From Verrucomicrobiota bacterium (lineage in GTDB: Bacteria; Verrucomicrobiota; Verrucomicrobiia; CAIQCK01): a DNA stretch of 64,000 nt. Location of the stretch: the NCBI GenBank assembly GCA_026397915.1, contig JAPLTX010000061.1:94731-158730 (forward strand), given 5' to 3'. Below are positions 110 to 51,093 of this stretch, in pieces (position 1 is the first letter of the stretch; each line of letters starts with the position of its first letter). The notes under the pieces are model-generated. The model made no database searches and was not told the origin of the DNA. It saw nothing but the letters and a program-made list of their open reading frames with translations. Made by a program: the position numbers and the translations under genes.

Positions 110-982
110 TCATCTTCCGGGTTGCGTCCATTTGATTTTCCCAACAAGCCCGTCCCAACTCAGCACGACGCTGTTCACGGCCGCCGGATCGTTGTTGGAC
201 GATGCAGTCTTGGCCGACTCACGACCGGGCACGATAATGGTCGCGCTCACGTCGCCACCGCGACTGACCTGCACGATACCGTTAACCAGCCGCACCGAAC
301 CGGGCATCGTAGGCATGCCATTGGCCTTGAACTCAATGAAGGCCATCTCACACCCCTTGGGCGGATCCGTGTCGGAGTTTCTGTAAGGAAACGGCAACAT
401 ATCCAGCGTTATTCTGTCCCATTGGTTTTGGCTGGCCATTTGACCAAAAAAAACAGTCGTCTTGGGTAACGACAGGCCCTTGGCGTCCGTGGACTTCAAA
501 TCTGTCTCAGCGGGGTCGAAAATGACTCCTTTGGTCAAGTATTTCCAAGGTTGAACATAATACCACCTGTCCTTGCCATAGGGCTTATTCGGTTGGTTCG
601 GTATGTTTCCCACCCAACCCCATCCGATTCTCTGCTGAAACATGATGGCGTAGGCGCTGTATTGCATCGCAACCAAGTCGGGGATGTTGGTTCCTGAATC
701 CTTGATGGTCTTATCCGTGGCGATCACCACCCGCATGCGGTAGTTGCGAGCAATGCCATACTGGCGGGCTAGGTTCAGGTCGTTGGAGAACTGCCGCGCC
801 GCGCTGATCAAAGAACTGCCCTTGGTGCCTTGGATCGACGGCATCGCCACCATCATCATCAGCCCGATGAGGGCCACCACAGCCATCAACTCAACGAGCG
901 TAAAAGCGGAACGGGAAGAGGCAAACGGCGGGAAGCAAGCGACGAGAGACCGGGCGCTCCTCATCAAATGCTCCTGCCGCAT
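110..982 (-). CDS. prepilin-type N-terminal cleavage/methylation domain pseudopilin (T2SS/T4P minor pilin)
   Basis: N-terminus SAFTLVELMAVVALIGLMMMVA is the class III signal/hydrophobic helix; start chosen at internal Met upstream of leader; ORF 110..1030. Confidence 0.6.
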   Translation of the reverse strand: MRQEHLMRSARSLVACFPPFASSRSAFTLVELMAVVALIGLMMMVAMPSIQGTKGSSLISAARQFSNDLNLARQYGIARNYRMRVVIATDKTIKDSGTNIPDLVAMQYSAYAIMFQQRIGWGWVGNIPNQPNKPYGKDRWYYVQPWKYLTKGVIFDPAETDLKSTDAKGLSLPKTTVFFGQMASQNQWDRITLDMLPFPYRNSDTDPPKGCEMAFIEFKANGMPTMPGSVRLVNGIVQVSRGGDVSATIIVPGRESAKTASSNNDPAAVNSVVLSWDGLVGKIKWTQPGR

Positions 983-1020
983 TTTCCCCGCTTTCCGCTT
1001 TCCACTTTCCGCTTTCATTA

Positions 1021-1713
1021 TTATTTCCAACTCCTCACGTCATCTTCGTAAGCTTTGGTCATGTTCTTGCTGCCCGGCTCCGACTGGTCAGTGCCTGTGC
1101 GTGTGTCGGGGCCATCGGAGAAGAAGGCGTAGCCTCCGGGGATGACGGTCGAGATGGCGGCATCGTCCTTGAACGGCACCGGCACCTGATTGTCATAAGC
1201 CGTGGGATCCGTCCAAGACTGCAAGTTGGATGGCTGGCCGTTTTGGAACGGCCCTCCGTAGTAGCTGCCTTTCTTGCCATTGTCGAAACAGTAGGCGTAA
1301 GGCATGCTCCACGGGTCGTAGAATGCCAGCGGGCACTGGTTGCCGGATCCCGGAATTGTCACATCCTTCAGCTTGAACTCCATGAACTGGATGGCTCGAG
1401 GGTTGTCGGTCGCCGCCTGGCCGTTGGCAATCTTTTGGCCCGTCTGGGGATTCATCAAACCGTTGAAAACCAGGATGAAATCCTGATCGTTGGCCGGGTC
1501 CGGCCACTTGCCATACTCGTTGTTGTAAGACTTGGCGGCCCCGCAAAGGCTTTGGATGGCCGCGCCCGCCTTGGCTTTGTTGGCGGCGTTCTTGACCACA
1601 TTGATGGTCGGGAACAACAAGCCCATCAACACCACGATGATGCTGATGACCACCAGCAACTCCACCAAGGTAAAGCCGCCGCCCCGGCGCTTCCGTTGTT
1701 CCATCGTTTTCAT
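1021..1713 (-). CDS. prepilin-type pseudopilin
   Basis: MKTMEQRKRRGGGFTLVELLVVISIIVVLMGLLFP motif typical of PVC-group pseudopilins; long GC-rich N-extension of ORF 1021..1815 discarded. Confidence 0.6.
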   Translation of the reverse strand: MKTMEQRKRRGGGFTLVELLVVISIIVVLMGLLFPTINVVKNAANKAKAGAAIQSLCGAAKSYNNEYGKWPDPANDQDFILVFNGLMNPQTGQKIANGQAATDNPRAIQFMEFKLKDVTIPGSGNQCPLAFYDPWSMPYAYCFDNGKKGSYYGGPFQNGQPSNLQSWTDPTAYDNQVPVPFKDDAAISTVIPGGYAFFSDGPDTRTGTDQSEPGSKNMTKAYEDDVRSWK

Positions 1714-1763
1714 AAATTCGTTCCTTTTCATCTGCCAACTCCCATCTCCCAACTGCCTGCCGC

Positions 1764-2648
1764 TTACCGCTGCTGCCAGTTGTTGATGTCGTCGTTGTCC
1801 TCGCCACCGTAACAATGTTTTATTCCACCTCCGGCTGTAACCTGAGTCTCGAATGGCTTCGTGAAATAAACAGGTATCTGAGGATGGTCAATCCCGTTCC
1901 AATGTTCTACGGTCGTCATTTGATCGAGCTTCAAGTCTCGCTGGCGATCATAGGGCTTGTCGCGATCCTGCCAGGTCGTGCCGTCCGCGCCGTAAGAACA
2001 TATGTCGCAGGAAGGGCTGCCCCAGATGGTGCCGGTGGTCTTGTTATTATGACGCGGCATCATGGTGCCGTCGGTGAACTTGTAGCTGTTTCCGTCGTAG
2101 CTCTTGTAATTCAGCGGGTTGCCCCAAGCATCCACAATCTGCATGTAGTTGCCGGGGGCCTCGTCATACGTCGCTTGGATTTTCGTGTTGCCCGTAATCA
2201 GTTGCTCGCGCTTGAAAACCATATAAGGCTGCTTCTGGTATCCAGTTCGCAAGTGAACGCCCTTATATGCCAGATAAAACCACAAAGCTTCACTAGGCCA
2301 AACAAACTGGTTGGACCTAAGATCGTCATTGTTAGCGTCCGTTGTGCTTGTTGTGCAGGTGACATCCGGCGGAAACCCGCCTCTGTCCGCGAAGAACATC
2401 TCTGCCGCCGTGTTCACCTGGTGAACGGTAGTGACAGTGCGGTTTTTCATCGCGGTCCTGTTGGCAAAGCCCGCGCCAGCAATCACGATGCCCGAAACAA
2501 TCCCGATGATGACAATCACCGCCATCAGTTCGACGAGAGTGAAGCCCGAGGCGGAGCGCAGGGCATTGAGCGTGGGGCGTCGAGCGTTCGCGGCTCCCGC
2601 CGTCGTTGTCGCCACTTGCTTTCCAACAATGGATTTCCAGTTTTTCAT
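1764..2648 (-). CDS. GspG-like major pseudopilin/pilin with prepilin N-terminus
   Basis: SGFTLVELMAVIVIIGIVSGIVIAG N-terminal methylation domain. Confidence 0.6.
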   Translation of the reverse strand: MKNWKSIVGKQVATTTAGAANARRPTLNALRSASGFTLVELMAVIVIIGIVSGIVIAGAGFANRTAMKNRTVTTVHQVNTAAEMFFADRGGFPPDVTCTTSTTDANNDDLRSNQFVWPSEALWFYLAYKGVHLRTGYQKQPYMVFKREQLITGNTKIQATYDEAPGNYMQIVDAWGNPLNYKSYDGNSYKFTDGTMMPRHNNKTTGTIWGSPSCDICSYGADGTTWQDRDKPYDRQRDLKLDQMTTVEHWNGIDHPQIPVYFTKPFETQVTAGGGIKHCYGGEDNDDINNWQQR

Positions 2649-2700: not shown

Positions 2701-3987
2701 CTATGCCGCGCCGCCCAGCTTCGTGAGGATGGTCACCAACGGCAGGAACAACGCCACAACAATGACGCCAACCACCACGGCCAGGAACACGATCAGCATC
2801 GGTTCCAACAGCGAGGTGATACCGGCGACGGCGTTGTCCACTTCCTCGTCGTAGTTGTCGGCGATCTTCATCAGCATCTCCGGCAACGCGCCGGTTTCCT
2901 CGCCAACGTCAATCATCGAGACCACCATCGGCGGAAACACCTTGCTGGCCTCCAACGGCCGCACCACCGATTCGCCCTCCTTCACCGAGTCGTGCACCCG
3001 CTGCACGGCGTCGGCGATGACGCGGTTGCCGGAAGTTTCCTTCACGATCATGAGTCCTTGCAGGATCGGCACGCCGCTGGAGATGAGCGTGCCGAGCGTC
3101 CGCGTGAACCGCGAAATGCCGACCTTGCGGATCATCGGGCCGAAGGCGGGCATGTTGAGTTTGAAGTTGTCCCAGAGCCTGGTGATCGCCGGCACCTTCT
3201 TGATCAGGAAGTTGAACAGCACCACGAACAGCACCACGCCGCCACCGACCACCAGCACGTTTTCGCGAATCAGCTTGCTGGTATTCATCACGGCTTGGGT
3301 CAGCGGCGGCAACGGTGCGCCTTCGAGCAGGTCTCTGAAGATGTCCTGGAACTTCGGCACGATGTAGGTCATCAGGAAGAACAGGATCGAGATGGCAATG
3401 GTGAGCACGACGATCGGATAGACCGACGCCGCGAGGACTTTGCCGCGAATCTTCTGCGCCTTCTCGGCGAACTCCGCCAACCGCGTCAGCACGACTTCGA
3501 GCACGCCGCCCGCTTCGCCGGCGCGGATCATGTTGATATAGAGCCGGTCAAACACCCGCGGGTGGTGCTGCATTGCCTCGGACATCGTCGAGCCGCCTTC
3601 GACCGCCTCGGCCAGCGCGGTGATGGTCTTCTTGAGGGCGGCATTGCGTTCCTGGCGCTCCAGTGTGCGCAACGCGCGCAGCAACGGCAGGCCGGCGTCA
3701 ATGAGCGTCGCCAGTTGGCGCGTGAAAATGGTGAGGAGCTTCTTGTTCACCCGGTCCGTAATGCCGGGGATGTTGATCTCCATCTGCTGCCAGCCACCCT
3801 TTTTGCCGCCCGCCGCGCTCGCCGCCTTGGACTTGCGGCCTTTGCCGGAGCCGGCCTCGGTGATCTTGGTGGGGAAATACCCCATCTCCTTGAGCTTGTT
3901 AATCGCGCCGGCGGGACTGTCTGACTCCATCTCGCCAGAAGTCTCTTTGCCGCGGGCATCTACTGCGGTGTATTCATACTTGGGCAT
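2701..3987 (-). CDS. gspF: type II secretion system protein F / type IV pilus assembly protein PilC
   Basis: 428 aa, two GspF repeats with three TM segments, strong family resemblance across full length. Confidence 0.9.
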   Translation of the reverse strand: MPKYEYTAVDARGKETSGEMESDSPAGAINKLKEMGYFPTKITEAGSGKGRKSKAASAAGGKKGGWQQMEINIPGITDRVNKKLLTIFTRQLATLIDAGLPLLRALRTLERQERNAALKKTITALAEAVEGGSTMSEAMQHHPRVFDRLYINMIRAGEAGGVLEVVLTRLAEFAEKAQKIRGKVLAASVYPIVVLTIAISILFFLMTYIVPKFQDIFRDLLEGAPLPPLTQAVMNTSKLIRENVLVVGGGVVLFVVLFNFLIKKVPAITRLWDNFKLNMPAFGPMIRKVGISRFTRTLGTLISSGVPILQGLMIVKETSGNRVIADAVQRVHDSVKEGESVVRPLEASKVFPPMVVSMIDVGEETGALPEMLMKIADNYDEEVDNAVAGITSLLEPMLIVFLAVVVGVIVVALFLPLVTILTKLGGAA

Positions 3988-4173: not shown

Positions 4174-5877
4174 TTACGTGTATTTCACGACTTCCTCGAG
4201 CGAGGTTTCGCCATCGAGAATGCGCCGGATGCCATCCTGGCGCATGGTGCGCATGCCAAGCTCCATGGCCTTGTCCCTGAGGACCATGCCGGCCACGCGC
4301 TCGTTGATGAGGGTGCGAATGGGGTCGGACACGCGCAGCAGTTCGCAGATGACGGTGCGGCCTTTGTAGCCGCTGTCGTTGCACTCGGAGCAACCCTTGC
4401 CGAAGAAGAACGTCTTGCCCACCACTTCGGACGGTTTGAGACCGAGGAGGTTCAGGTCTTGTTCGGTCGGCTCGTAGGCGGTCCGGCAGTTCTTGCAAAT
4501 CTTGCGCACCAACCGCTGGCCGAGCACCGCTTCGAGCGTGGAACTGACCAGGAACGGTTCGACACCCATGTCAAGCAGACGGGTGACAGCGCCGGAGGAA
4601 TCGTTGGTGTGCAGCGTCGAGAAAACCAGATGGCCGGTCAGCGATGATTGGATGGCAATCTGCGCCGTCTCCAAGTCGCGCATCTCGCCCACCAGGATGA
4701 TGTCGGGGTCCTGGCGCAAAAAGGCGCGCAATGCCTTGCCGAACGTCAGCCCGACGGCTGGGTTGATCGGCACCTGCATGATGCCTTCGATTTCGTATTC
4801 GACAGGATCCTCGGCAGTGAGCAGTTTGGAATCAATGGTGTTGATGCGACCGAGGCAGGAGTAAAGCGTCGTGGTCTTGCCGGAACCGGTCGGGCCGGTG
4901 ACGATAAAGATGCCGTTGGGCCGTTCGATGATTCCGCAGACTTCGTCAAAGATGGCCTTGGGCATGCCGAGCGTGGCGAGGTCGAGGTTGACGACGGAGC
5001 GGTCGAGCACGCGAAGCACTACGCTTTCGCCAAACTGCGTCGGCAGCGTCGAGACACGGAGGTCCACCGGCCGGCCGGCGATGGACATCTGGATGCGGCC
5101 GTCCTGCGGGATACGCCGCTCAGCGATGTTGAGGTTGGCCATGACCTTGATGCGGCTGGTCACGGGTAACGCCAGATGCTTCGGCGGCGGCGCCATTTCG
5201 TAAAGCGCGCCGTCCACGCGGTAGCGAATCTTGAACATCTCCTCGAACGGCTCGAAGTGGATGTCGCTCGCGCGGTCGCGGATGGCTTGGAAGAGAACGA
5301 GGTTCACGAAGCGGATGACCGGCGCCTCGCCGGCCATCGCCGCGATGTTCTCCACCGTCATGATATCGGGCGCGGCCACCTCCGTGAGGTTCGTCAGGCC
5401 TTCGATTTGCGAGATGAGGTCGTCCACCGACTCAGACCCCTCATCACCGTAGAGTTGCTTGACCATCGCCCCGATCTCGTCGGGATCGGCAACCACGAGA
5501 TGGATGTCGCGGTCCAGGACGAAGCGCAGTTCCTCGACAATGCCGGCATTGAGCGGGTCACTGACGGCGATGTGAAGTGTGTTGCCTTCGAGCTTGATCG
5601 GGATGGCGCAGTAAGCGCGCGCCTGCGCCGGCGGGATGAGTTTCAGCGTCTCTTTGGACAGTTCCTGGTCCTTGATGCTGATCAACTCGGTGCCGAGGTG
5701 TTGCGCGACGACGCTGAGAATCTGCTCGCGCGTCAGCACATCCATATCCATGAGGACTTCGGCAATACCTTTACCGCCACGCGCACTTTCGGCCTCGATC
5801 TCGGCCAACTGCTCGGCGGGCAGCAGTTGATGTGCCTTCAGGATGCCCAGCAAAACGTTGGATTCAGCTTCAAACAT
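4174..5877 (-). CDS. gspE: type II secretion/type IV pilus ATPase GspE/PilB family
   Basis: T2SSE N-domain, Walker [11 protein letters not shown], Asp box, His box, tetracysteine CxxC...CxxC zinc motif. Confidence 0.9.
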   Translation of the reverse strand: MFEAESNVLLGILKAHQLLPAEQLAEIEAESARGGKGIAEVLMDMDVLTREQILSVVAQHLGTELISIKDQELSKETLKLIPPAQARAYCAIPIKLEGNTLHIAVSDPLNAGIVEELRFVLDRDIHLVVADPDEIGAMVKQLYGDEGSESVDDLISQIEGLTNLTEVAAPDIMTVENIAAMAGEAPVIRFVNLVLFQAIRDRASDIHFEPFEEMFKIRYRVDGALYEMAPPPKHLALPVTSRIKVMANLNIAERRIPQDGRIQMSIAGRPVDLRVSTLPTQFGESVVLRVLDRSVVNLDLATLGMPKAIFDEVCGIIERPNGIFIVTGPTGSGKTTTLYSCLGRINTIDSKLLTAEDPVEYEIEGIMQVPINPAVGLTFGKALRAFLRQDPDIILVGEMRDLETAQIAIQSSLTGHLVFSTLHTNDSSGAVTRLLDMGVEPFLVSSTLEAVLGQRLVRKICKNCRTAYEPTEQDLNLLGLKPSEVVGKTFFFGKGCSECNDSGYKGRTVICELLRVSDPIRTLINERVAGMVLRDKAMELGMRTMRQDGIRRILDGETSLEEVVKYT

Positions 5878-5878
5878 G

Positions 5879-6900
5879 TCACTTCATACCCAGTTGTTGC
5901 ATCATGGTATCGGGATCCTGCGCGGTGGTCAGCATCTCGCCGTAGTCAATGATGCCTTTCCGGTAAAGCTCCACCAAATGACTGTCGAGCGTGAACATGC
6001 CGTGTTTCGCGCCGGTCTGGATGTCGCTTTGGATGCGGAAGGTCTTGTTGTCGCGGATCAGCGCCTGGATGGACTGCGTGGTGATCATCACCTCGAACAC
6101 CGCCACGCGCCCCTTGCCGTCTTTCTTCGGCAGCAGCAACTGCGAGATGACCGCCTTGATCGAGCTGGCGAGCTGCGTGCGGACCTGCTCCTGCTGCGCC
6201 TGGTGTGCAGCGTGGCGAAGACCAAGTGGCCCGTTTCCGCCGCGGTGATGGCGGCCTCCATCGTTTCGAGGTCGCGCATTTCACCGACGAGAATCACATC
6301 GGGGTCCTGCCGCAAAGAGCGGCGCAACGCCTCGGAAAACGAGGTCACGTCCACGCCGATCTCGCGCTGGGTGACGATGCTCTTCTTGTTCGAGTGGTAA
6401 TACTCGATCGGATCCTCGACGGTGATGATATGGACGTCGCGCTCCTCGTTGACAACGTTCAACATCGAGGCCAGCGTCGTGGTCTTGCCGGAACCGGTCG
6501 GACCCACCACAAGGATCAAACCGCGCGGCAGGTAGAGCAAATCCTTGATGCTGGGCGGCAGGCCGATCTGATCCAGCGTCATCATCTTCGTCGGAATCTG
6601 CCGCATCACCAGCGCGAAGTTGCCGCGCTCCTTGAAAATGCTGACGCGGAACCGCGCCTTGTCCTGATAAGCAAAACCGAAATCGCTGCCGCCGACCTCG
6701 CGCGTCCGGCGCAGGTGTTCTTCGCTGGTGATGGATTTTACCAGCCGCTCCGCGTCCTCCTGTGTCACCGGCGGCACTTGTGTCAACGTCACCAGCGAGC
6801 CGTGCAAACGCACCACCGGCGACAATCCAACCCGGATGTGAAGGTCGGAGCAATTCTCCGCTACGACCAACTCCAACAACTGGTCCATTCGGACTTTCAT
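5879..6900 (-). pseudogene. pilT: twitching motility ATPase PilT, disrupted by ~47-nt internal deletion causing frameshift
   Basis: N-part (6190..6900) reads through Walker A/B to [10 protein letters not shown] then shifts frame; C-part [38 protein letters not shown]...IRDNKT continues in another frame to stop at 5879; the segment just after [10 protein letters not shown] that other PilT proteins carry (e.g. P. aeruginosa TSAAKTIDRVVDVFP, recalled from memory) is absent. Confidence 0.7.
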
Positions 6901-6951
6901 ATCGTTTCCTCTAAATCGTCTATCGTCAGCGATGATCTTTCGGTTGCGCGG

Positions 6952-8691
6952 TTAGTCAACGTCGGCCGCTGTGGTCTTCATCACTTCCTCCGGCGTTGTC
7001 AACCCGGCGACTGCCTTGCGAACGCCATCCTCACGCAACGTGCGCATGCCCAATTCGCGCGCCGCCTTGCGCAGAACGTGCGCCGACACCCGCTCGTAAA
7101 TCAGTTTCTGAATCTCTTCGTTGATGACAAAAACCTCAAAGATGCCGATCCGGCCGCGGAACCCGGTCCGGTTGCACTCGTTGCAGCCGCGGCCCTTGTA
7201 GAAGGTCGTCGTCGTGACCTGCTCCGCCGTCAACCCCATGAACCGCCGTTCGGCGTCGGTCGGTATGTAAGGTTCCTTGCAGCGTTCGCAGATTTTTCGC
7301 ACCAGCCGCTGTGCCATGATTGCGCGAATGGACGACGCGCAAAGGAACGGCTTTACGCCGATGTCCAGCAAGCGTGTGACGGCGCTGGGCGCGTCGTTGG
7401 TGTGCAACGTGGAGAACACCAAATGACCGGTCAACGACGCGTTGATGGCGATCTCCGCCGTTTCAAGGTCGCGAATTTCACCGATCATGATCACGTTCGG
7501 CGCTTGGCGCAGGATCGAGCGCAACGCCGCCGCGAACGTCATGCCGACTTCCTCTCTCACCTCCACCTGATTCACGCCCGACAGCGAATACTCCACGGGG
7601 TCTTCCACTGTGATCAGTTTCTTGTCGGGACGGTTGATGAAATTCAGGCAGGAGTTCAGCGTGGTGGTCTTGCCGGAGCCGGTCGGGCCGGTCACCAGCA
7701 GGATGCCGTCCGGCAGCGTGATCAGCCGCTCAAACGTCGCCTGATCGTCGCTGAAGAATCCAAGCTGCGGCAGGCCGACGAGCATGCTCTTCTTGTCGAG
7801 AATACGCATGACGATGCTCTCGCCATGCGCCGTCGGGATGTCGCTGACGCGCAAGTCGAACGGTCTCTCCACCACGTTGATCCGGATGCGGCCATCCTGC
7901 GGAATGCGCTTCTCGGCGATGGACATGTTCGCCATGATTTTGAGACGCGAGATGATGGACGCCTGCAATCGTTTCGGCGGGTTCTCGATCTCTTGCAAAT
8001 AACCGTCAATCCGGTAGCGCACGCGCAGCTTCTTCTCCAATGGCTCAACGTGAATGTCGCTTGCCCGCATCTTCACCGCCTGCACGATCATCGCCGTCAC
8101 CAACTTGATGATCGGCGCGTCGCCCTCGCTCACCGGCCCGCCTTCCTCTGCGCCGCCGCGCAACATGATGTCATCGTCAGTCACCTCATGGCCAATCTTG
8201 CCCATGATTGACTCGATGGCATCGTCAGCGCTGCCGTAGTATTGCGTGAGAGCCTTCTCAATGTCGGACTTCGTGGCCACCATCCCCTCTACGTTGCACT
8301 TGAGGATGTAGCGCAGGCTGTCGAGCGTATCCACATCCATGGGATTGGAGAGCGCCACGGTGATCGTATTCTCGTGCTTGAACACCGGCACGATCTGGTA
8401 GCGACGCGCGACGTGCGACGGCACGGACTGGATGACATCGTCGGCCACCTTGTGTTCGGACAGCGTGATGACGTCCATGCCGAACTGGTTGGCGAGCGCC
8501 TGCGTCACCTGAAGCTCGGTGATGATGCCCTTCTTGATCAAAGCATCCACGATGCCCTTGGTCTTCGGATCGCTGCCGATAAGGGGCGTCGCCTGTTCGA
8601 TGTCTTCCTGGGTCACCAATCCCAGGTCGCGCAGGATATCCACTATATATTGGTCGTTGGCTGCCACAAAAAAGCTTCCACTAACTTCCAA
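6952..8691 (-). CDS. pilB: type IV pilus assembly ATPase PilB-like (GspE family with N-terminal T2SSE_N domain)
   Basis: 579 aa, GspE_N domain, Walker [11 protein letters not shown], CxxC..CxxC; non-ATG (TTG) start inferred. Confidence 0.85.
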   Translation of the reverse strand: MEVSGSFFVAANDQYIVDILRDLGLVTQEDIEQATPLIGSDPKTKGIVDALIKKGIITELQVTQALANQFGMDVITLSEHKVADDVIQSVPSHVARRYQIVPVFKHENTITVALSNPMDVDTLDSLRYILKCNVEGMVATKSDIEKALTQYYGSADDAIESIMGKIGHEVTDDDIMLRGGAEEGGPVSEGDAPIIKLVTAMIVQAVKMRASDIHVEPLEKKLRVRYRIDGYLQEIENPPKRLQASIISRLKIMANMSIAEKRIPQDGRIRINVVERPFDLRVSDIPTAHGESIVMRILDKKSMLVGLPQLGFFSDDQATFERLITLPDGILLVTGPTGSGKTTTLNSCLNFINRPDKKLITVEDPVEYSLSGVNQVEVREEVGMTFAAALRSILRQAPNVIMIGEIRDLETAEIAINASLTGHLVFSTLHTNDAPSAVTRLLDIGVKPFLCASSIRAIMAQRLVRKICERCKEPYIPTDAERRFMGLTAEQVTTTTFYKGRGCNECNRTGFRGRIGIFEVFVINEEIQKLIYERVSAHVLRKAARELGMRTLREDGVRKAVAGLTTPEEVMKTTAADVD

Positions 8692-13441: not shown

Positions 13442-15052
13442 ATGAAAAGCATAGCTGCGCGTTTTCTCCTGCCTTTCAGCGCCGTCGCTGTCATTTTCTC
13501 GACGCTCGTTTTCTACGAAATATACGCAACGAGCCAGCGTATCGCTGACGATTTCGTTCGCCACCAAGCGAACATGGTCATGGAATTCAACCAGGCCATC
13601 CGAGAATATGCGACCGAGACGGCCCAGCCGGCCATGCAGAACATTGCGGCCAAGGACGAGTGCATTTCCGAAGTGATGTCCTCTTCGCTCATTGCACGAA
13701 GCGTCTTCAAGACAATCCAAAAGAAGTTTCCCGGCTATATCGTTCGCTTCGCCTCCGACAAGCCGCGCAATCCAGCCAACCAAGCCACGCCGGAAGAACT
13801 GCGGATCATGGATTTCTTTCGCCAAAACCCGCAAATCATCCAGCAGAGCGAACAGATTCAGATCAACGGCCAGCGTTATGTGGCACAGTTCAAGGTTCTG
13901 CGGACGACGGCGGAATGCCTGCGTTGCCACGGCGATCCGAAGGAAGCGCCGGCGGCAATGGTGAAGCGATATGGCGCAACGGCAGGCTTCCACCGGCAGG
14001 CTGGCGATGTAGCGGGACTCGATACGGTCGCGATTCCCGTGGAGGCGGTTGCTGTCGCAATGGCTGCGGAGATGCGCTGGAAACTGCTGGTTCTGGCCAT
14101 GTGGATCGCCTTCCTGTTCGGGATGGTTGGCTTGGTGTTCCATTGCATGGTGTCACGGCGCCTGGCAGCGATGGCGCGGCACATCCGGGAGCTTGCCACC
14201 AAATCGGAAGTCTCACGGATAACGCCGGAGGGATTGAGAGAGAATGACGAGATTGACGTGCTGGGCATCGCTTTCGACAAGCTTTTTGAACAATTGCGGG
14301 CCATGCAAGCCTCTCTCGAACAACGCGTCGTCGAGCGCACCGCCGAACTGGCGCGGGCCAACGACGGGTTGAAACAAGAAATTGCGGAGCGCCAGCGCGC
14401 GGAGGAGGCAGTGCGAGAAAGCGAGCACCGCCTGCAAGCCACCATCAATCGCGCACCGTTTGGCGCGTATTTCTTCGAGTTACAATCGGACGGACGGTTG
14501 GTGCTCACGGGAGGAAATCCCGCCGCGGAAAAAGTTACGCGGGCGATGAATCAGCAATTTTTCAACAAGGCGATCGAAGACGCCTTTCCAAGCCTGAAGG
14601 GAACAGAGATTCCCGATGCGTTCCGACGTGTTGCGGCCAACGGTGATGACTATCAAAACGATCAGGTCGAATGGAACGATCAGGGCATTCGAGGCGTGTT
14701 TGAGTTTCACGCCTTCCAGACCGGCGTCAACCGAATGGCTGTCTTTTTCCAGGACGTCACCGAGCGCAAGCGGGGTGAAGACGCGATCCGGGCTTCCCTC
14801 CAAGAGAAAACGGTCCTCCTGAAAGAGGTGCACCACCGCGTGAAGAACAACCTCCAGACCGTGACCAGTCTGTTGAACCTCCAGGCGGTCCGCACCAAGA
14901 ATCAAACCGCGCTCGACACCTTGCAGGAAACCGGCAACCGAGTCCGCTCGATGGCGCTGCTGCATGAAACGCTTTACCGTTCGGAGACGTTGGGGCGCGT
15001 GAACTTCGGCAACTACATCGAGAACATCTGCGGCCACCTTTTCCGTTCCTAT
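13442..15052 (+). pseudogene. sensor histidine kinase, 5' portion (DUF3365 heme CXXCH sensor-HAMP-PAS-HisKA_2), interrupted by prophage insertion after ...ICGHLFRSY
   Basis: ORF 13442..15085 ends [10 protein letters not shown] read from prophage end; no HATPase domain; matching HATPase fragment at 50724..51093; paralog 51107..52552 gives colinear template HLFRSHAQKAARIKLE. Confidence 0.75.
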
Positions 15053-16638: not shown

Positions 16639-17937
16639 TCAGGTTGGCTGTTGAGGATTCGCGGCCGCTCCGGGTGTTTCCCCACCGGGGCCGACGGCAA
16701 CTACACGCATCCAGGCTTGCGTCCATTCGAGCGGCAAACCGTTCCAGGCTTCCGTAGCGCCTGGCGTCACACCCGTTCCCCACGGCGTGTAATTCACTCC
16801 GTCTGTTGATTGCTCGGCGTTCAAAGATGTCGCCCCCGCGGAAAGCGAAGGCCACGTTACATCCATCCGCCAACTGTCCGGCGGGTCGCCAACAAGCGCG
16901 AGGTTGGTAATCGTTGGCGCATCGGGTGCCGATGGCGGCGGCGCTGTGGACGTTGGCGTTGGCGTCGGTGGCGGGGCCGTTGGGGTTGGTGTGGCCGATG
17001 GACTCGTTGGGGTTGGCGTTGCCGATGGACTCGTTGGGGTTGGCGTGGCCGATGGACTCGTTGGGGTTGGCGTGGCCGATGGACTCGTTGGCGTTGCCGA
17101 TGGACTCGTTGGGGTTGGTGTGACCGGCGGGGCCGTTGGGGTCGGCGAGGGGACTGTCGGTGTGGCGGTTGTGGTCGGTGTGGGCGTGGCATCAACAATG
17201 GTCATGCTCTCGGATTGTTGGACGTGATTGTTGTTCGCGTCGTAGAGGTGCGCGGTCCAAGAGTAAGCCCATGTGGGGCCGGGGCCGGCCGGGCGGGTTG
17301 GCGTGCCGGTGATGGAGCCGTTAAGATTGAAGCTCAGACCTGGAGGCAGCGGGCCGGCGTCCATCATCCACGTGTAGGGTTCCGTTCCGCCCGTGCCGGT
17401 GTGCTGGAGCGACACGGGATTGCCAACGGTTTGGTTGGGCCAGACACCGCCGTTCGTGATCGCGAGTTGGCCGCCGCTGGAAGGCGTGGGCGGCGAGGAA
17501 GGCGTGGCCGTTGGCGATCCACCGCCGCCACCGCCACCGGTCCCCGTCGGGGTTGGGGTTGCGGAGGGTGAGGCCGTTGCGGTTGACGATCCGCCGCCAC
17601 CGCCCGTCCCTGTCGCGGTCGGGGTTGCTGAAGCCGAGGCCGTTGGCGAGGCCGACGCGGTCGGTGTTGCTGTTGGCGCGGCGATGATGCGAACGCCCTC
17701 CGGTTGTTTGATGGTGTTGCCCTCGGCGTCCGTGGCGCGAATCCACCACTGGAAACGGCCCGCGACGGTCGGCGTGCCAGAGAGCACGCCAAGAAGGCTC
17801 AGTGTCAAGCCGGGCGGAAGCGAGCCATAGATTTTCTGCCACGCGTAAAGCGGCTGACCGCCCGTGGCGGCGTGGCTGAATGAATACGCGGCCCCGACGT
17901 TGCCGTCGGGCAGATGGTGTTTGGATGTGATGCGCAT
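16639..17937 (-). CDS. phage tail fiber-like protein with He_PIG (putative Ig) domains and PT-rich linkers
   Basis: LPDGNVGAAYSF...PPGLTLS...GTPT motif repeated; long PTPTSPSATPTPT linker encoded by 27-bp tandem repeats. Confidence 0.5.
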   Translation of the reverse strand: MRITSKHHLPDGNVGAAYSFSHAATGGQPLYAWQKIYGSLPPGLTLSLLGVLSGTPTVAGRFQWWIRATDAEGNTIKQPEGVRIIAAPTATPTASASPTASASATPTATGTGGGGGSSTATASPSATPTPTGTGGGGGGGSPTATPSSPPTPSSGGQLAITNGGVWPNQTVGNPVSLQHTGTGGTEPYTWMMDAGPLPPGLSFNLNGSITGTPTRPAGPGPTWAYSWTAHLYDANNNHVQQSESMTIVDATPTPTTTATPTVPSPTPTAPPVTPTPTSPSATPTSPSATPTPTSPSATPTPTSPSATPTPTSPSATPTPTAPPPTPTPTSTAPPPSAPDAPTITNLALVGDPPDSWRMDVTWPSLSAGATSLNAEQSTDGVNYTPWGTGVTPGATEAWNGLPLEWTQAWMRVVAVGPGGETPGAAANPQQPT

Positions 17938-17958
17938 GGGCGTGTGGAGGCGGCGTGT

Positions 17959-19055
17959 TTAAGGCGCGGTCGGTGTCGGCGTCGGCGGTGGGGCCGTTGG
18001 GGTTGGGGTTGCCGACGGACTCGTCGGGGTTGGTGTGACCGACGGACTCGTCGGGGTCGGTGTGGCCGACGGACTCGTCGGGGTTGGCGTGGCCGACGGA
18101 CTCGTCGGGGTCGGCGTGGCCGACGGACTCGTCGGGGTCGGCGAGGGGACCGTCGGTGTGGCGGTTGCGGTTGGTGTGGGCGGCAGCGCGGCGAGCACGA
18201 CCATGCCAACGGGATCGTCGGCGTGGTTGCCCTCGGCGTCGGTGGCGCGAACCCACCAGGTGAAATGGCCGGTGGTCGTCGGCGTGCCGGCGAGCGTGCC
18301 GTCGCTGTTGAGCGCGAGGCCCGGCGGCAGCGAGCCGGAAAGCAGCGACCAGGTGTAGGGCGCGACGCCGTCCACGACCGCGAACGCGAAGCTGTAGGCG
18401 GAGCCGACGTTGCCATCGGGCAGGTAGAAGTCGGACGTGACGCGGAAGCCGGTGCCAGTCGTTGGCGTGGGCGTGGGCGTTGGCGTCGGTGTGGCGGTGG
18501 CCGTCGGGGTCGGCGTTGGCGTGGCGGTCGCGGTCGGTGTCGGCCCTGTGCTTGTGGGCGTCGGCGTCGGGATAAATTGAACCGTGCCGAAATCGGTTGT
18601 CTCGTCGAAGCCGGCGGCAAAGACGGTCACATCTTCCTTGAGCCAGGTCTCGATGCGGCCGTCGGGCCGCTTCGCGCCGAACATGACGGTGGACGGCCTT
18701 GACTCCAAGCCCAGGAGCCACTCGGCGGAGACGGCCTCCGGGAACTTGAGGACGCATTCGAGCTTGCCGCCGCGTTTGATGAAGTCGTTTTTGAACGCGA
18801 CAAAGCCCGGATCGTCGAGCGTGCCGGTGGGGACGCCCTCGCCCGCGATGACGCCGACGACGAACTTGTAGCCCGCAACGTTGCGGTAGATGAACTTGTT
18901 GCCGGTCGTCAACGGGTTGGGCGAGAGCGGATGGATGCGCCACTCGACGGCGCTACCCTGAAAGAACTCGATGCGGTCGTAGGTTGGCTCGGCGTCGTCG
19001 TTGATGCCGGTGACGCGCTTGCCGGTGGCGGTGTTGAGATAGATGTCACGCATAG
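17959..19055 (-). CDS. phage tail fiber protein with He_PIG Ig-like domains and PT-rich linkers
   Basis: start MRDIYLNTATGKR chosen inside ORF 17959..19611; YLPDGNVGSAYSFAFAVVDGVAPYTWSLLSGSLPPGL motif; paralogous to 16639..17937. Confidence 0.5.
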
Positions 19056-19711
19056 AGGTAACTGTCCAATCCGAGGAGGTTGCTGTTGGCGTCGAGGAAC
19101 AAGAGCGTGCGGCGGCGCACGTCCTGGCCGGTCCACGCAAGGTGCCGGTCCACGGGCGCGATTTCGTGGCAGAGGTGCCAGTAGGGGGCGACGACGCGGA
19201 GATGCTGGCGGACGACGTTGCGGGGCGTGAAGACGTAAACGTCCTCGCCGCGCTCCTGGCTGAGCGTGGCGCTGTAGGCGGCGGTGATGTAACCGATGTA
19301 GAGAAAGCCCTTGAGCGTGGACGGCCAGTTGCCCTGGCTTGGGAACCACGGCCAGCCGGCGTCGGCAGGCGTCGGGCCGTCCTTGAGAAGCGCGGACACT
19401 GGCAGCACGCCGAAGTCGCCGCCGAGCTGCAGGAGCACCTCGGCCCAGACGTGATGGACGATGTTACCCTGCACCGGCACGGTGACAACGGCGTGCAACG
19501 GCTGTTCGCTCTCGCTGTCGTTGGAGGGCTTGATGTCCTTCGTGGCGTCGAGTGTTTCGCCAACGGCGATGTAGCCACGGCGCACGGCGAAGGCGGCCTG
19601 ATTGTTCGCAAGCGTCACGCCGTCGGGCGCGCTGCCGGGGACGATCTTCCAGGGGAAGCTCCACTCAAGCCTGTTGAGGCGGCAGCCCTCGGTGTCGTAG
19701 CGTCCGCTCAT
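19046..19711 (-). CDS. phage tail/baseplate-associated protein (hypothetical)
   Basis: 221 aa, located between tail tip genes and fibers; no recognisable motif. Confidence 0.3.
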   Translation of the reverse strand: MSGRYDTEGCRLNRLEWSFPWKIVPGSAPDGVTLANNQAAFAVRRGYIAVGETLDATKDIKPSNDSESEQPLHAVVTVPVQGNIVHHVWAEVLLQLGGDFGVLPVSALLKDGPTPADAGWPWFPSQGNWPSTLKGFLYIGYITAAYSATLSQERGEDVYVFTPRNVVRQHLRVVAPYWHLCHEIAPVDRHLAWTGQDVRRRTLLFLDANSNLLGLDSYLYA

Positions 19712-26161: not shown

Positions 26162-27103
26162 CTATGACGTGGCCGTCGGCGTCGGCGTTGGCGTCGGGGT
26201 TGCCGCGACACCGGTGGAGCCGAGTATCTGGCGCGGCGCGGCGTATTGGCTGCCGATGCCGCGGAGCACCTGGTAGAGGAACTCCTGATGCTTGACCACG
26301 TGGCTGTCGCCAGGGTTGGTGCATTCGTTGGTGATCGGCTCGTATTCGATGCCGACCACCAGCGGCTTGATCGGGGACGCGATGTCGGCGAGATACCATG
26401 CGGTGGACGAATAGGTGCTCAGGCCGGTCAGGACGATCAGTTCGGCGCTGCCGGCGTTGGGGTTCTTGCCGCCAGTGGTCAGGGTGTCCGTGACCACGAT
26501 GCTCTTGGCCTTGGCCTCCAACTCCGGCGGGACGATCAGCGCGAGCTGGTCGCCGAGTTCCATGCTCTCGCCCTTGTCATCGAGCCGCTTGCGCAGCAGC
26601 GCGCGCGCCGCCTCATAGTTTGCCGCGGTCAGCGCCGTGGTCAGCAGGTTGGTGAAGGCGCTTGCCTTCCCGTATTCCTTCTTGCCGGCGGCGAAGAAGT
26701 AGGAGTTGCAGTAGTCCTTGGTTGTGAAGCCCTCGCCGAGCAGCTTGGTAACGAGCTTGTTCGGCAGCCGGATCGCGCGGTCGGCCATCGCTTCGGCGCG
26801 CGGGTTCAACAGGCCGAGCTTGTCCCGGCGGATGGCCGAGACGGGGACGCCGATGGTCAACTCGAACTCTTTGATGTCGAGCGTGAAGCCGGACAGCCGG
26901 AGGTTCTGGATCGCAACCTCGCCGATCAGCTCGCGCATCGGCGGCAGGGCCATCAGGAAGTCAAGGTCCTCGGACTCACCGTCGCACTGGATGGACGTGG
27001 CGAGTTTCTGCCAGACCTGATTGCCGGGTTTCGCCAGCCGCTGCATGATGACAGCGCGCAGGCCGCGGAACACTTTTTGCACATTCTCTTGAGTGACTAG
27101 CAT
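26162..27103 (-). CDS. major head subunit, Mu gpT-like
   Basis: 313 aa from MLVTQENVQKVFRGL; size and order (I-?-T-gp36) as in Mu-like phages. Confidence 0.55.
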   Translation of the reverse strand: MLVTQENVQKVFRGLRAVIMQRLAKPGNQVWQKLATSIQCDGESEDLDFLMALPPMRELIGEVAIQNLRLSGFTLDIKEFELTIGVPVSAIRRDKLGLLNPRAEAMADRAIRLPNKLVTKLLGEGFTTKDYCNSYFFAAGKKEYGKASAFTNLLTTALTAANYEAARALLRKRLDDKGESMELGDQLALIVPPELEAKAKSIVVTDTLTTGGKNPNAGSAELIVLTGLSTYSSTAWYLADIASPIKPLVVGIEYEPITNECTNPGDSHVVKHQEFLYQVLRGIGSQYAAPRQILGSTGVAATPTPTPTPTATS

Positions 27104-27165
27104 GGTCGTTTCCTTATTGGGGTGTTGAAATAATGGAGTGATGGATGATGGGTTGTGGGTTGCGG

Positions 27166-27984
27166 CTACGAGGTGATCTGCTGGGTGTTGAGAGCGGCCT
27201 TGATGGCGCGCACGTCGTCGGCCAGTTCCTCCAGCTTGGTGCGGAGGGTTTCCACCGTCGTCTTCGTGGCGGCGGTCTGGAGGGCCGTGTCGAGGAGGAT
27301 GACATCCTCGGCCAGGTCCTCGCACTTGCCGACCAGCGTGGCGAACTTCGCGCGAACGTCGCGCACGTCGTCGCCGATCTTCTCGGCCTCGGTGGCCAGC
27401 GGGCCAACCTCGGAGCAGCCGGCGGCGGTGCCGTTGGAGCTGGTCTCGGTCGCGAGCGCCACGGCCTCAATCTCGCCGTCGGTATTCTGCGGCGTGATGG
27501 TGGCCGGCGCGCCGATGGTCACGTCGCTGATCTCGCTGTTGGCGCTGCCGAGCGTGACGGCGGACGGCGCGGGCACGGCGGCGCTGAAGTCCACCAGCAC
27601 ACCGAGCGTGGCGTCAACCTTGAGCGCGCGGCCGGCGACAATCTTGTTGGTGCCGCCGTCCTTGCAAACCGTCTGGTCGTCTTCAACGAAAACGAGCTTG
27701 CCGAGTTCGGCGACCGTGACGGCGTTGGAGCCGCTGTTGTCCATCCACTGCGGACGGCGGTCGAGCACGGCGACAAGGTCGCCCGCGTCGCCGTCGGTGT
27801 TGTTCTTTTCGGCGACGAAGGTGCCGCGCACCTTGAGGCCCGAAGTGTCGGCGGCCGGGGCCACATTGCCCGCGGCGTTGACCGCCCCCATCGTGCCGGC
27901 GTAACAATGCGCCGCGGCGGCGACGGGGAAGTCCAAGGACTCGCCTGCCTGGCGGGTCACGTCTCTATTTTCTGTTGCTGCCAT
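27166..27984 (-). CDS. hypothetical head protein (scaffold/decoration candidate) with C-terminal coiled coil
   Basis: 272 aa between protease I-like and major head gene (Mu Z position). Confidence 0.3.
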   Translation of the reverse strand: MAATENRDVTRQAGESLDFPVAAAAHCYAGTMGAVNAAGNVAPAADTSGLKVRGTFVAEKNNTDGDAGDLVAVLDRRPQWMDNSGSNAVTVAELGKLVFVEDDQTVCKDGGTNKIVAGRALKVDATLGVLVDFSAAVPAPSAVTLGSANSEISDVTIGAPATITPQNTDGEIEAVALATETSSNGTAAGCSEVGPLATEAEKIGDDVRDVRAKFATLVGKCEDLAEDVILLDTALQTAATKTTVETLRTKLEELADDVRAIKAALNTQQITS

Positions 27985-28050
27985 GATTGTGTCCTCGTTG
28001 GAGTGTTGGAGTTGTTGGAGTGGTGGAGTGATGGAGTGATGGAGAGGCGG

Positions 28051-29115
28051 TTACTTGCCGGCCGCGTCGTATTGCTCGCGTGTGATGTTCATCTGCTTGC
28101 AGACGTTCGCGATCACGTCGCTGGACTGGTCACCGGGCGCGCCGACAATGCCCGTGGAGGCAAGCGCCTTGATCTTCTCAGGCGTGCGCTGTTCCATCGG
28201 CACCTGGCCGGCGGCAAGGCTGCCCAGATACTTCTTCCAGCCCGCGAGGTCGAAGTCGTCGGCGCTGAGCGCGATGAGCTTCCCATCGCGGATGGCGAGA
28301 TTGGTCAGGTTCTGCTTCTCGATGCCGTCGAGCCGGTCGCTGACGGGCTTGACCCCGGCGCTGACGGCGGCCGTGATGGCTTCCGCCGAGAGCGGCTTCA
28401 CGGCATCCGCCGCAGTGGCTGGCGCGGCCGGCGCGACGGCCGCGATGCGGTCGGCGGCGGTGGCGGGGGCGACCTTGAGTTTGTCGGCCACCTTGGTGGC
28501 GGCGTCCTGGATTTCCTGGTCGGTCGCCGTGTCGGGCAGGCCGAGGATGATGAGCAGCAGTTTCTTGTGGTCCACGTTGTCTCCTGTGTTGGTGTTGTTG
28601 GTTGGTTCGGCGAGCGCGGCGGAAAGCACCGCCGAGAGGGGGAGCGTGATGCCGTCCACTTCGCCGTGGCGGCAGAGCGCAAACGAATGGACGAACGTCA
28701 CCGTGCCATCGGGCGCGGTGGCAACGGCGGCGGACACGTCGGGGTAGTCGGCCTTGTATTCCTCAGCGATGGGATTCCACTCGATGGAGCAGGCAAAGAG
28801 GCCCTCGCCCGCTACGACTTCGGGCGTCCAACGGCGCGCGGAAAGATGGCACGGCTCACCTTTGTAAAATTGTGTGCCTTCGACGGTCTGGTGTTGGAGG
28901 TCGCCGTGTGGCCGGGGGCGCTTGGCGCGCAACTGGTTCTTCGGCAGCAGCGCCATCGTGGATTCGTTGACCTTGAGATTGCCAAACCGGGTGTCGTTGT
29001 CGCCCCAGTGGAGGAGCTTGAGGCGCGTAGGCAGCGGCTTGGTGAGGTCGAGTTTCTCAACGGCTCCGAGCAGCGTCAGTTGGTTCTTGCCTTGCACGAC
29101 GCGAGTCCAACACAA
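28051..29115 (-). CDS. Mu protein I-like head maturation protease/scaffold
   Basis: 354 aa, position between G-like and T-like genes; N-terminal domain consistent with Mu-like prophage I family. Confidence 0.45.
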   Translation of the reverse strand: MCWTRVVQGKNQLTLLGAVEKLDLTKPLPTRLKLLHWGDNDTRFGNLKVNESTMALLPKNQLRAKRPRPHGDLQHQTVEGTQFYKGEPCHLSARRWTPEVVAGEGLFACSIEWNPIAEEYKADYPDVSAAVATAPDGTVTFVHSFALCRHGEVDGITLPLSAVLSAALAEPTNNTNTGDNVDHKKLLLIILGLPDTATDQEIQDAATKVADKLKVAPATAADRIAAVAPAAPATAADAVKPLSAEAITAAVSAGVKPVSDRLDGIEKQNLTNLAIRDGKLIALSADDFDLAGWKKYLGSLAAGQVPMEQRTPEKIKALASTGIVGAPGDQSSDVIANVCKQMNITREQYDAAGK

Positions 29116-29180
29116 CGCGGGGCATTCGCGCCAAGCACCGTGGCCATCGTGGCCATCGTTTCACCAAAAGGGTCAGGGTG
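29116..29180 (-). promoter_or_regulatory. conserved 45-nt motif CCCTTTTGGTGAAACGATGGCCACGATGGCCACG upstream of protease I-like gene; second copy at 44258..44300 upstream of holin-like gene
   Basis: near-identical copies in transcription-sense orientation before two late-type genes; contains direct repeat ACGATGGCC x2. Confidence 0.4.
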
Positions 29181-29186
29181 GGGAAA

Positions 29187-29230
29187 AGCTGAAAGCTGAG
29201 AGCTGAGAGCTGAGAGCTGAGAGCTGAGGG
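29187..29230. repeat. tandem heptamer array (AGCTGAR)n in G-I intergenic region
   Basis: agctgaaagctgagagctgagagctgagagctgagagctgag; one of 8 such arrays confined to the prophage. Confidence 0.8.
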
Positions 29231-29232
29231 GG

Positions 29233-29730
29233 CTACTTCGGACGGCGGCCGGAGATGCTCTCCCACTTCGCCTTCATCGCCTGCCCGATCTTCGTGTGGG
29301 CGAACTTTGCGATGACCTTGCCCACGAAGGGGAAGAACGGGCGCGCGGACAGGTTCCGCGGCGGATAGCCGAACTGGTGCGCGCGCGCGTAGGGCCGGTC
29401 GCTGGCCGCGATGGCGCGGTCGTTCGTTACCGACAGCACGCGGAGGCTGCGCAATAGCGACGTGGTCTTGATGAGCAGCGGCTTGCCATTGACTTTTCCG
29501 GCGGCGTTGCGACGACGGGCGTCGGGGCCGTAGGTGGTCTTGGGGTCGTCGCTCTTGCGGGCGGCCCACGGCGCGGCGCGCAGCGACGGGTCGCGGAACG
29601 AGCGGCGGGCGATGTTGACCAGTTCCTGAGCGCCGGCCCGAAGCACGGGCGCGGCCCGACGCGCCGCCTCGATCTTCCGGCGGAGATCGGGCGTGATGAG
29701 GTCTTGGACAAGACGGACGGTTGGTTTCAT
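29233..29730 (-). CDS. phage virion morphogenesis protein, Mu G-like
   Basis: 165 aa; ...TSLLRSLRVLSV...ARPFF motif of virion morphogenesis family; follows F-like gene. Confidence 0.5.
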   Translation of the reverse strand: MKPTVRLVQDLITPDLRRKIEAARRAAPVLRAGAQELVNIARRSFRDPSLRAAPWAARKSDDPKTTYGPDARRRNAAGKVNGKPLLIKTTSLLRSLRVLSVTNDRAIAASDRPYARAHQFGYPPRNLSARPFFPFVGKVIAKFAHTKIGQAMKAKWESISGRRPK

Positions 29731-29735
29731 TTGAG

Positions 29736-30674
29736 TCAGGCCGCGAGCTTCATACCGTTGAGCCAGTCGAGCAGCGTCACGCCCGGCTCAAGCTCCGTTG
29801 CCTTTGCCATCGTCTCGAACTGCGCGTAGGTGGCCGCGTCGTATTTGGCGCGCAACCCCTCGATGGGCACGGCCAGGCCGTTGGAATTGAGCGGCGTGCT
29901 TCGGAACCGCGCGCCCTTGTTGAGGTCGAACGTCCCCGTGCCGCCGCCCGCGCCGCCAGGGGTGTCGCTCCACTCGATCTTCTTGCCGATGTTCTTGTCG
30001 GCCATGCGCGCGGCCGTCTCCGGGCCGATGGCGATCTGCCCCGCCTCGGCTTGTTGCAGCGCCGCGCCTTCGAGCACGCGCCGGTCGTCGGGATGTTTGT
30101 CCGCGTCCGCGTCGCGGATGGCTTGAGTATCTTCTTTCGTCAGTGCTTCCTTCCAGCAACGGCAGCCCCACTCCTTAAACCGGTCCCAGAACGGCGAGTT
30201 GGCCGGCAACACTTTACCATCAAGCGCCTCGTGCGACGCGCGCACGTTCTCGTCGCCGACCGTGTGCCACTGCCAGTCGGGCATCACGTCGCGCTGCTCG
30301 TCGAGCGCCAGTGTCTGCGTGGCGTCGTAGACGTCATAGGCGTTGGTGCGCAGGACCAGTTCCGCGCGCGCGTTGGACGCCGCCAGTTGTCCGGCCCGCG
30401 TCTCGGCGTCGGCGGACGGGTCCACCATGTGCGGCGAAAACTCGTCGGCGATCCGCCCCTTGATGTCGTTCCAGTCTCCGCCCGCGGGAAGCTCCGCCGC
30501 CAGTTCTCGCACGCGGGCGATGGCGTCGGCGTGCTCCAGCGTGGCCGCCGTGAAGAGCCGCGCCCGCACCTCCGGCAGCATCGCGTCAAACACCTTGCGC
30601 GTCACCGCCGGCTTGCCGGCGAGGAACTTGACGGCCTCTTTGTTTGGAACGGATTTGAGAAGGAATGAGGGCAT
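29736..30674 (-). CDS. phage head morphogenesis protein, Mu F / SPP1 gp7 family
   Basis: 312 aa; NVRASHEALDGKVLP...WGCRCW matches Phage_Mu_F H..L.G and CRC signature. Confidence 0.6.
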   Translation of the reverse strand: MPSFLLKSVPNKEAVKFLAGKPAVTRKVFDAMLPEVRARLFTAATLEHADAIARVRELAAELPAGGDWNDIKGRIADEFSPHMVDPSADAETRAGQLAASNARAELVLRTNAYDVYDATQTLALDEQRDVMPDWQWHTVGDENVRASHEALDGKVLPANSPFWDRFKEWGCRCWKEALTKEDTQAIRDADADKHPDDRRVLEGAALQQAEAGQIAIGPETAARMADKNIGKKIEWSDTPGGAGGGTGTFDLNKGARFRSTPLNSNGLAVPIEGLRAKYDAATYAQFETMAKATELEPGVTLLDWLNGMKLAA

Positions 30675-44250: not shown

Positions 44251-44334
44251 CGCGCGGCACCCTTTTGGTGAAACGATGGCCACGATGGCCACGCTGCTTG
44301 GCGGTCGGCGCGCGGGGGCGCGTAGGCTGGCCGC

Positions 44335-50723: not shown

Positions 50724-51093
50724 CTATGGACCCAAGGCGGCTCACATTAAGCTGGAAACTCATCTGGAGGAAGTCTCCGTTGATTTGGACCAGGCGGTAT
50801 CGTGCGGCCTCATCATCAACGAACTGGTTTCCAACGCGCTCAAACACGCCTTCCCCGACGGACGATCGGGGCGGATCGCGGTCGAATTGAAGATGGCACC
50901 GGAAAAGCAAATCGTTTTGAATGTTGCCGATGACGGAGTAGGCATCCCGCCGGGAGCAGACATCCATCAAACCGGAACACTGGGTCACCAACTGGTGTTC
51001 ATGCTCGCCGAGAAACTGCACGGCACCGTTGAAGTGATACGGGAGCACGGAACCACCTTCCGCATCGTGTTTCCATCGAGACTCAGTTGAGAG
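50724..51093 (+). pseudogene. 3' fragment of interrupted sensor histidine kinase (HATPase_c domain)
   Basis: ...PKAAHIKLETHLEEVSVDLDQAVSCGLIINELVSNALKHAF...GTTFRIVFPSRLS colinear with C-terminus of paralog 51107..52552; in-frame stop upstream inside prophage end. Confidence 0.8.

Follow-up and report, generated by a model that had tools for sequence, protein, structure and literature searches.

A frameshifting 46-bp deletion in the pilT gene of a Verrucomicrobiia-type pilus operon: a probable recent loss-of-function allele or an assembly error

The stretch of DNA analysed here (the window, 64 kb in full length) carries a pilus operon in the order gatC-gatA-gatB, PilB/GspE-like ATPase, pilT, PilB/GspE-like ATPase, pilC and three pilin-like genes, and the reading frame of pilT is broken within the gene. 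The closest intact PilT protein first found, P0001 (355 aa), is encoded in the same operon on the NCBI MAG contig L001 and the Logan contig L002; the former serves below as the reference for orthologs. The features of this region are as follows.

6952..8667, minus strand: upstream PilB/GspE-family ATPase, intact, 571 aa if the start is as in the L001 ortholog (longest ORF from TTG 8691); 95.4% identity over 571 aa in one frame
6202..6900, minus strand: 5' part of pilT, codons 1-233, with the N-terminal domain, Walker A, Asp box (ITVEDPIEY), Walker B and His box; recognized by identity to P0001 and by TIGR01420
6200..6201, minus strand: deletion junction ...CACACCA(6201)/G(6200)GCGCAGCAGG..., at which relatives hold 46 nt (CCGGYTCCGCGCGCACGGTGGACCGCATCGTGGACGCGTTTCCGAC or close variants)
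6088..6201, minus strand: out-of-frame tail of 37 aa, ending with TGA 6090-6088, by translation
5879..6199, minus strand: 3' part of pilT in the other frame, 106 codons and stop TGA 5881-5879, with the AIRNLIRE equivalent; protein identical to P0144, the nearest intact ortholog
4174..5877, minus strand: downstream PilB/GspE-family ATPase, intact, 567 aa; 92.4% identity over 567 aa to the L001 ortholog
2701..3987, minus strand: pilC/T2SS-F platform protein, intact, matching the L001 ortholog
110..2648, minus strand: three pilin/pseudopilin-like genes, all matching L001 orthologs in one frame

The order of this operon is kept in L001, in the related loci L016-L018 and in other loci, and the flanking of pilT on both sides by PilB/GspE-family ATPases is an arrangement conserved across this clade (L001, L016-L018). 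The initiation codon of the downstream ATPase (5877) is located 1 nt after the pilT stop (TGAcATG), and N-terminal methylation motifs were detected in both of the pilin-like genes scanned (1764-2648 and 1021-1815). The genes with orthologs on L001 were single-frame and of full or near-full length, with 68-95% identity, the exceptions being pilT and a histidine kinase gene split by a prophage. Both ATPases next to pilT carry MshEN N-terminal domains, and their scores fell just under the PilB and GspE equivalog cutoffs, so that the names 'pilB' and 'gspE' are not justified for them. The sequence-only reading had named these two genes pilB and gspE and called them intact; their intactness was borne out by the full-length, single-frame matches to L001 (95% and 92%), while the two names had to be given up.

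Direct translation of pilT was normal from the ATG at 6900-6898 to Thr233 (ACC, 6204-6202), and out of frame thereafter. Frame A begins with MKVRMD, continues to Thr233 and then runs through the nonsense tail to a double stop, TGA TGA, at 6090-6085. Frame B is open from 6280, and from 6199 onward reads AQQEQVRTQ...IRDNKT...QQLGMK up to the stop TGA at 5881-5879. When the intact ortholog P0001 was compared with the window by tblastn, two pieces in different frames were obtained, residues 1-233 matching 6900-6202 (95.7% identity) and residues 246-355 matching 6211-5882 (93.6% identity). DNA alignment with two intact orthologs indicated a gap of exactly 46 nt, the sole indel in pilT, with the junction between A6201 and G6200. 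The length of this gap is 3n+1; 14 codons are gone entirely and codons 234 and 249 in part, and 'AG' is left between the two frames. Across the site, the relatives read CAC ACC A^CC GGY TCC GCG CGC ACG GTG GAC CGC ATC GTG GAC GCG TTT CCG AC^G GCG CAG, and the window contains ...CTGCACACCAGGCGCAGCAGG..., with CTGCACACCA on the left and GGCGCAGCAGG on the right side of the junction. The residues missing from the window copy (codons 234-249) are TG(S/A)ARTVDRIVDAFPT, and a single gap of 15 residues was observed, exactly at the junction, in each alignment of the spliced translation with solved PilT structures. In a protein alignment of 27 sequences, residues 234-236 and 238-249 were conserved in all but the window copy, i.e. 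in the 26 intact homologs. The initial proposal had been a PilT-like translation that loses its frame, with the true continuation in another frame down to 5879; a deletion of 3n+/-1 nt just after the His box, about 47 nt in size; and a loss of about 15 residues from a conserved stretch. Translation, tblastn and the ortholog alignments agree with it in all these respects except the size, which is now set at 46 nt.

The identity of the gene was examined with the spliced product, in which the two frames are joined. This product gave 408.4 bits against TIGR01420 (PilT/PilU type IVa pilus ATPase; cutoff 319.1), covering profile positions 2-342 of 343, and stayed far under the cutoffs of the PilB and GspE models. 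Its best matches among solved structures were PilT of Aquifex, Geobacter, Pseudomonas and Thermus (E 2.5e-87 to 6e-80), with PilU ranking lower. It aligned end to end with the PilT structures of Aquifex aeolicus (2EWV/2GSZ), Geobacter (6OJX) and P. aeruginosa (3JVU/3JVV), at E 2.5e-87 to 9e-81, and like these the window gene carries Walker A, Asp box, Walker B, His box and the AIRNLIRE-type motif. The first four of these are all in frame A, and were invariant in the 27-sequence alignment. The AIRNLIRE-type motif is present in a variant form in frame B only, where it aligns with AIRNLIRENK of A. aeolicus PilT. Unlike the solved PilT proteins, the window gene is without the 15 residues directly after the His box, its frame is broken and no full-length protein is encoded; the ATPase core is interrupted at 6201/6200, where the conserved residues are absent. 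PilU, the PilT paralog acting as accessory retraction ATPase, belongs to the same TIGR01420 subfamily, but the match of the spliced product to solved PilU was weaker (233 bits vs 296 for PilT). As read from the assembled sequence, the window gene is an ortholog of PilT, yet encodes no functional member of the PilT/PilU group. A second pilT or pilU was not detected by tblastn within the 64-kb window, the two PilB-like genes being the only matches.

Related loci were collected with a degenerate DNA pattern placed just 3' of the junction, which would match deleted and intact alleles alike. This yielded seven loci from species-representative genomes and six from JGI metagenomes, and exact-protein look-ups of P0001 and the near-identical P0144 added seven more, giving 20 loci in total. 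The 46 nt were present in all 19 related loci spanning the site, and the remaining locus, L010, carries 44 nt of them; none of the 20 shares the deletion. The intact Verrucomicrobiia MAG orthologs (P0144, which is MFA6563730.1, P0001, P0145 and others) lie in an operon of the same order as that of the window, and P0144 differs from the window PilT at 2-3 residues outside the gap. Unlike the window gene, these orthologs are 355 aa long and keep TG(S/A)ARTVDRIVDAFPT. The nearest relatives showed DNA identity of about 90% over the operon and about 94% within pilT, indicating that they represent other species and not the same strain.

Pattern scans of genome, metagenome and viral contig collections returned intact relatives only, or nothing. 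When the two flanking ATPases and the truncated product of 270 aa were looked up as exact proteins, no match was found, so that no independent copy of the deleted allele was obtained. Partial proteins ending at the break were searched with the N-terminal 233 aa; none of high identity was found, and the cluster listing consisted of intact proteins or unrelated partial ones. In a DNA alignment of six lineages over 7.5 kb, only two indels were specific to the window, the 46-nt deletion and a 1-nt intergenic insertion, and the deletion is the sole one in coding sequence relative to the five other lineages. The 1-nt insertion is located near 6920, within the 51-nt spacer between the stop of the upstream ATPase and the pilT ATG. 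The contig of L010 (Ga0154606_1135 of metagenome Ga0154606, segment 5262-5305) ends 2 nt inside the segment that is absent from the window. L010 is a relative of about 89% identity and its end nearly coincides with the left breakpoint, a coincidence for which the chance among the retrieved contigs is about 1-2% by rough estimate. Poor sequencing of a GC-rich stretch, a site of recurrent variation or coincidence might each account for this contig end.

We then compared the substitution patterns on both sides of the junction. Against the nearest relative, L016, the part of pilT upstream of the junction showed 3 nonsynonymous and 46 synonymous changes (dN/dS 0.017), and the part downstream 0 nonsynonymous and 14 synonymous changes (dN/dS 0). 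Against L001, the values were 0.043 upstream and 0.032 downstream, and for the flanking genes against L016 they were 0.05-0.07. The pilT gene is under very strong purifying selection, with omega of about 0.02. Neither half of pilT contains further stops or indels, and relaxed selection as after inactivation was not seen. For the stranded 3' part, with 248 nonsynonymous sites and no change at any of them, the 95% upper bound on neutral evolution is about 0.012 substitutions per site, corresponding to less than about 5% of the dS measured pairwise with the nearest relative. The absence of decay in the rest of pilT indicates that the lesion is either very recent or not real; an artefact, too, would leave precisely the pattern seen in the 3' part, 0 nonsynonymous and 14 synonymous changes.

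The breakpoints themselves (ACCA^CCGG...CCGAC^GGCG) share 0 nt of microhomology in the sequence of any relative, and a deletion between the nearest direct repeats (CGGC) would be 44 nt long, not 46. Spontaneous slippage deletions without microhomology are uncommon. Slipped-strand phase variation and repeat-mediated deletion were rejected because the junction lacks a slippery or repeat tract and the breakpoints lack direct repeats. A deletion driven by a hairpin or quasi-palindrome was likewise rejected, as the predicted folding of the intact region was no stronger than that of shuffled sequence (z = -0.16), with no significant hairpin, and the breakpoints do not lie at a stem base. Translocation of the 46-mer within the window was rejected because no match was found there at up to 3 mismatches.

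At a distance of 8.8 kb from the pilus operon, a block of 35.7 kb (15052-50723) forms an apparently complete Mu-like transposable prophage. It lies inside a Tll0287/PAS/HisKA_2 histidine kinase gene that is uninterrupted in L001, separating residues 1-537 (13442-15052) from residues 537-657 (50725-51087). The genes identified within it encode Portal_Mu, Mu F, the Mu I protease, the gpT major head protein, a tape-measure protein and Mu Gam, together with a MuB-like transposition protein and a ParB-like protein. Its ends are formed by imperfect inverted repeats with GTTTGAAACGG motifs, and CTAT(C/G)G is present on both flanks. The left-end sequence of the prophage found no match in the viral contig collection.

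Taking the sequence of the window and its relatives together, we consider that pilT was probably knocked out by a real and recent 46-bp deletion, giving a loss-of-function allele. The single pilT of the conserved gatCAB - pilB-like - pilT - pilB-like - pilC - pilin operon, in an uncultured Verrucomicrobiia-type genome, would then have been inactivated recently. The deletion would take codons 234-249 directly after the His-box strand and shift the frame; translation would yield a predicted product of 270 aa, consisting of 233 native residues and a nonsense tail of 37 residues; and the last 106 codons, including the AIRNLIRE-type motif, would no longer be translated in register. It is also possible, with a smaller but still considerable probability, that the pilT gene of this organism is intact and that the 46 nt were lost in consensus building, as an artefact of assembly, scaffolding, polishing or library preparation. 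A blunt contig join, an error in gap closing or polishing, or chimeric reads over a poorly covered GC-rich stretch are the conceivable routes. The lack of decay in the rest of pilT, with no nonsynonymous change downstream, is consistent with such an artefact, and so are the extreme constraint on a gene that is intact in 20 of 20 relatives, the uniqueness of the deleted allele and the blunt junction without microhomology; the break of L010 at 2 nt from the left breakpoint may hint at a coverage problem in CCGGYTCCGCGCGCACGG. On the other hand, a de Bruijn assembler cannot make a junction that is absent from all reads, and the flanks share no repeated word that could join them and mislead a k-mer assembler. 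A loss of 46 nt in non-repetitive sequence is not the usual homopolymer error of long reads. The window contains no N, the frame scan by codon usage placed the switch in pilT at 6202 and showed no further clear frameshift over the 64 kb, and the one other window-specific indel in 7.5 kb is a single intergenic nucleotide. The 13 other products with L001 orthologs were all single-frame apart from the prophage-split kinase, which argues against a generally error-prone assembly. The retraction-null allele and the assembly error, both raised in the sequence-only reading, are thus the two explanations left standing by the evidence.

Three other explanations were weighed against the same observations. 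In one, pilT would have a fragile or targeted site that is hit repeatedly, for instance by a transposable element or phage excising imprecisely or as a recombination hot spot, and the deletion would be a scar left there. The blunt deletion and the contig break at this place in another lineage would then both be accounted for; the end of L010 lies 2 nt from the left breakpoint, and the Mu-like prophage is present in the same window. No remnant of an element, target duplication or terminal-repeat motif was found at the junction, however, and L010 is a single coincidence against 19 other loci uninterrupted at the site, so that we regard such a scar as very unlikely. Still more improbable is an old pseudogene, in which pilT has been decaying ever since a distant loss of retraction, or of the pilus system as a whole, in this lineage. 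The disruption of pilT, and that of the neighbouring kinase gene by the prophage, would fit this view, but the 3' part carries no nonsynonymous change (bound of about 0.012 substitutions per site), neither half has acquired other stops or indels, and all other pilus genes are intact and conserved. To functional recoding or a split gene, that is, programmed frameshifting or two polypeptides reassembling into an active PilT, we ascribe next to no probability. In frame B, GTG ATG overlaps the stop of frame A (GGTGATGATC), and re-initiation to give a short C-terminal peptide is conceivable. Against this, the 15 invariant residues are physically absent and beyond restoring by any frameshift, the junction has no slippery or repeat tract, and none of the 20 related loci, all 46 nt longer, has a split or shifted gene.

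The pilT copy as given in the window would make no functional PilT; its predicted product is without the segment after the His-box strand and the entire C-terminal region, and should be inactive, judging by established knowledge of PilT-family ATPases. If the deletion is real, pili made from this operon could extend but could not be retracted by it. The pilT mutants of other bacteria are hyperpiliated, non-twitching and resistant to phages that need retraction, and by analogy the same would be expected of this cell. Ribosomes translating the deleted allele would stop about 210 nt ahead of the coupled TGAcATG start, and expression of the second ATPase may therefore be lowered. An AlphaFold model of the intact ortholog, made with the 27-sequence alignment, had a mean pLDDT of 54.9, too poor for the ATPase domain; it weakly suggests that residues 233-244 form a helix following strand 226-231.

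Truncation of PilT by a small lesion is well known. A 4-bp frameshift deletion in P. aeruginosa pilT (delta568-571) was selected by the pilus phage PO4 and left the pili on the cell surface (PMC13170266), and in Francisella tularensis type B a stop codon makes pilT a pseudogene (PMC2941502). As in these alleles, a small lesion truncates the window PilT while the other pilus machinery is intact. The known cases differ in that they have verified sequences and phenotypes, the window allele being known from assembled sequence, and in that their lesions are a 4-bp deletion or point nonsense instead of a blunt 46-bp deletion. Unless it is an assembly error, the window allele adds one more pilT-null lesion, from a phylum that has been little studied. 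It is no new kind of feature; in either case, the knowledge of PilT and of how such genes are lost is unchanged. A real deletion would mean that the organism lost, very recently, the sole retraction motor seen in this operon, one very strongly constrained in its relatives. The predictions would then be pili that stay extended permanently, an absence of twitching, a change in aggregation, and resistance to retraction-dependent phages. This would be a strain-level trait of use to those culturing the lineage or modelling its ecology. If an artefact, it is a local assembly error in need of correction ahead of annotation.

Mu-like temperate phages of Pseudomonas (Casadabanvirus: D3112, DMS3 and MP22) require type IV pili as receptor (PMC12035536). 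This motivates the reading that a real pilT deletion was selected by phage pressure in a lysogen of the Mu-like prophage, which by this analogy is conceivable but unlikely. If true, this uncultured groundwater-type Verrucomicrobiia lysogen with its retraction-null pilT would capture one moment of pilus-phage coevolution in nature. As a weaker and speculative variant, the site after the His box might be a recurrent break point, since another contig also ends there.

Within the prophage, the portal gene and a large ORF just before it lie on the strand opposite to Mu F/I/gpT and at the far end from these (26162-30674, minus strand, vs 47019-50341, plus strand), a module order different from that of Mu. 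The large ORF before the portal gene is unannotated, and a terminase is suspected from its position only. Arrays of the heptamer CAGCTYT were detected at nine sites between 29188 and 46297 (about 29188, 33804, 34349, 39963, 41314, 41883, 41932, 44345 and 46259), with 28 matches to an 18-mer pattern vs 0.03 expected; these arrays are found in either orientation, chiefly between genes, and none lies outside the prophage. An inverted repeat of 45 nt with 98% complementarity (29129-29173 and 44259-44303) brackets 15 kb of the prophage. At 16639-19611 (minus strand), two ORFs share one reading frame, with a lone in-frame stop at 17959-17961 between them. Each has a He_PIG Ig-like domain, and this pair could represent a nonsense mutation or read-through in a large tail or fibre-like gene of the prophage; the coding signal in the 16.6-18.2 kb region is weak and ambiguous. 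Outside the prophage and the pilus operon, the window encodes at 59281-62637 (minus strand) a protein of 1118 aa with a hydrazine-synthase-alpha middle domain (HZS_alpha, 1e-29), together with weak, sub-cutoff matches to F5/8 type C and cbb3-type cytochrome c domains.
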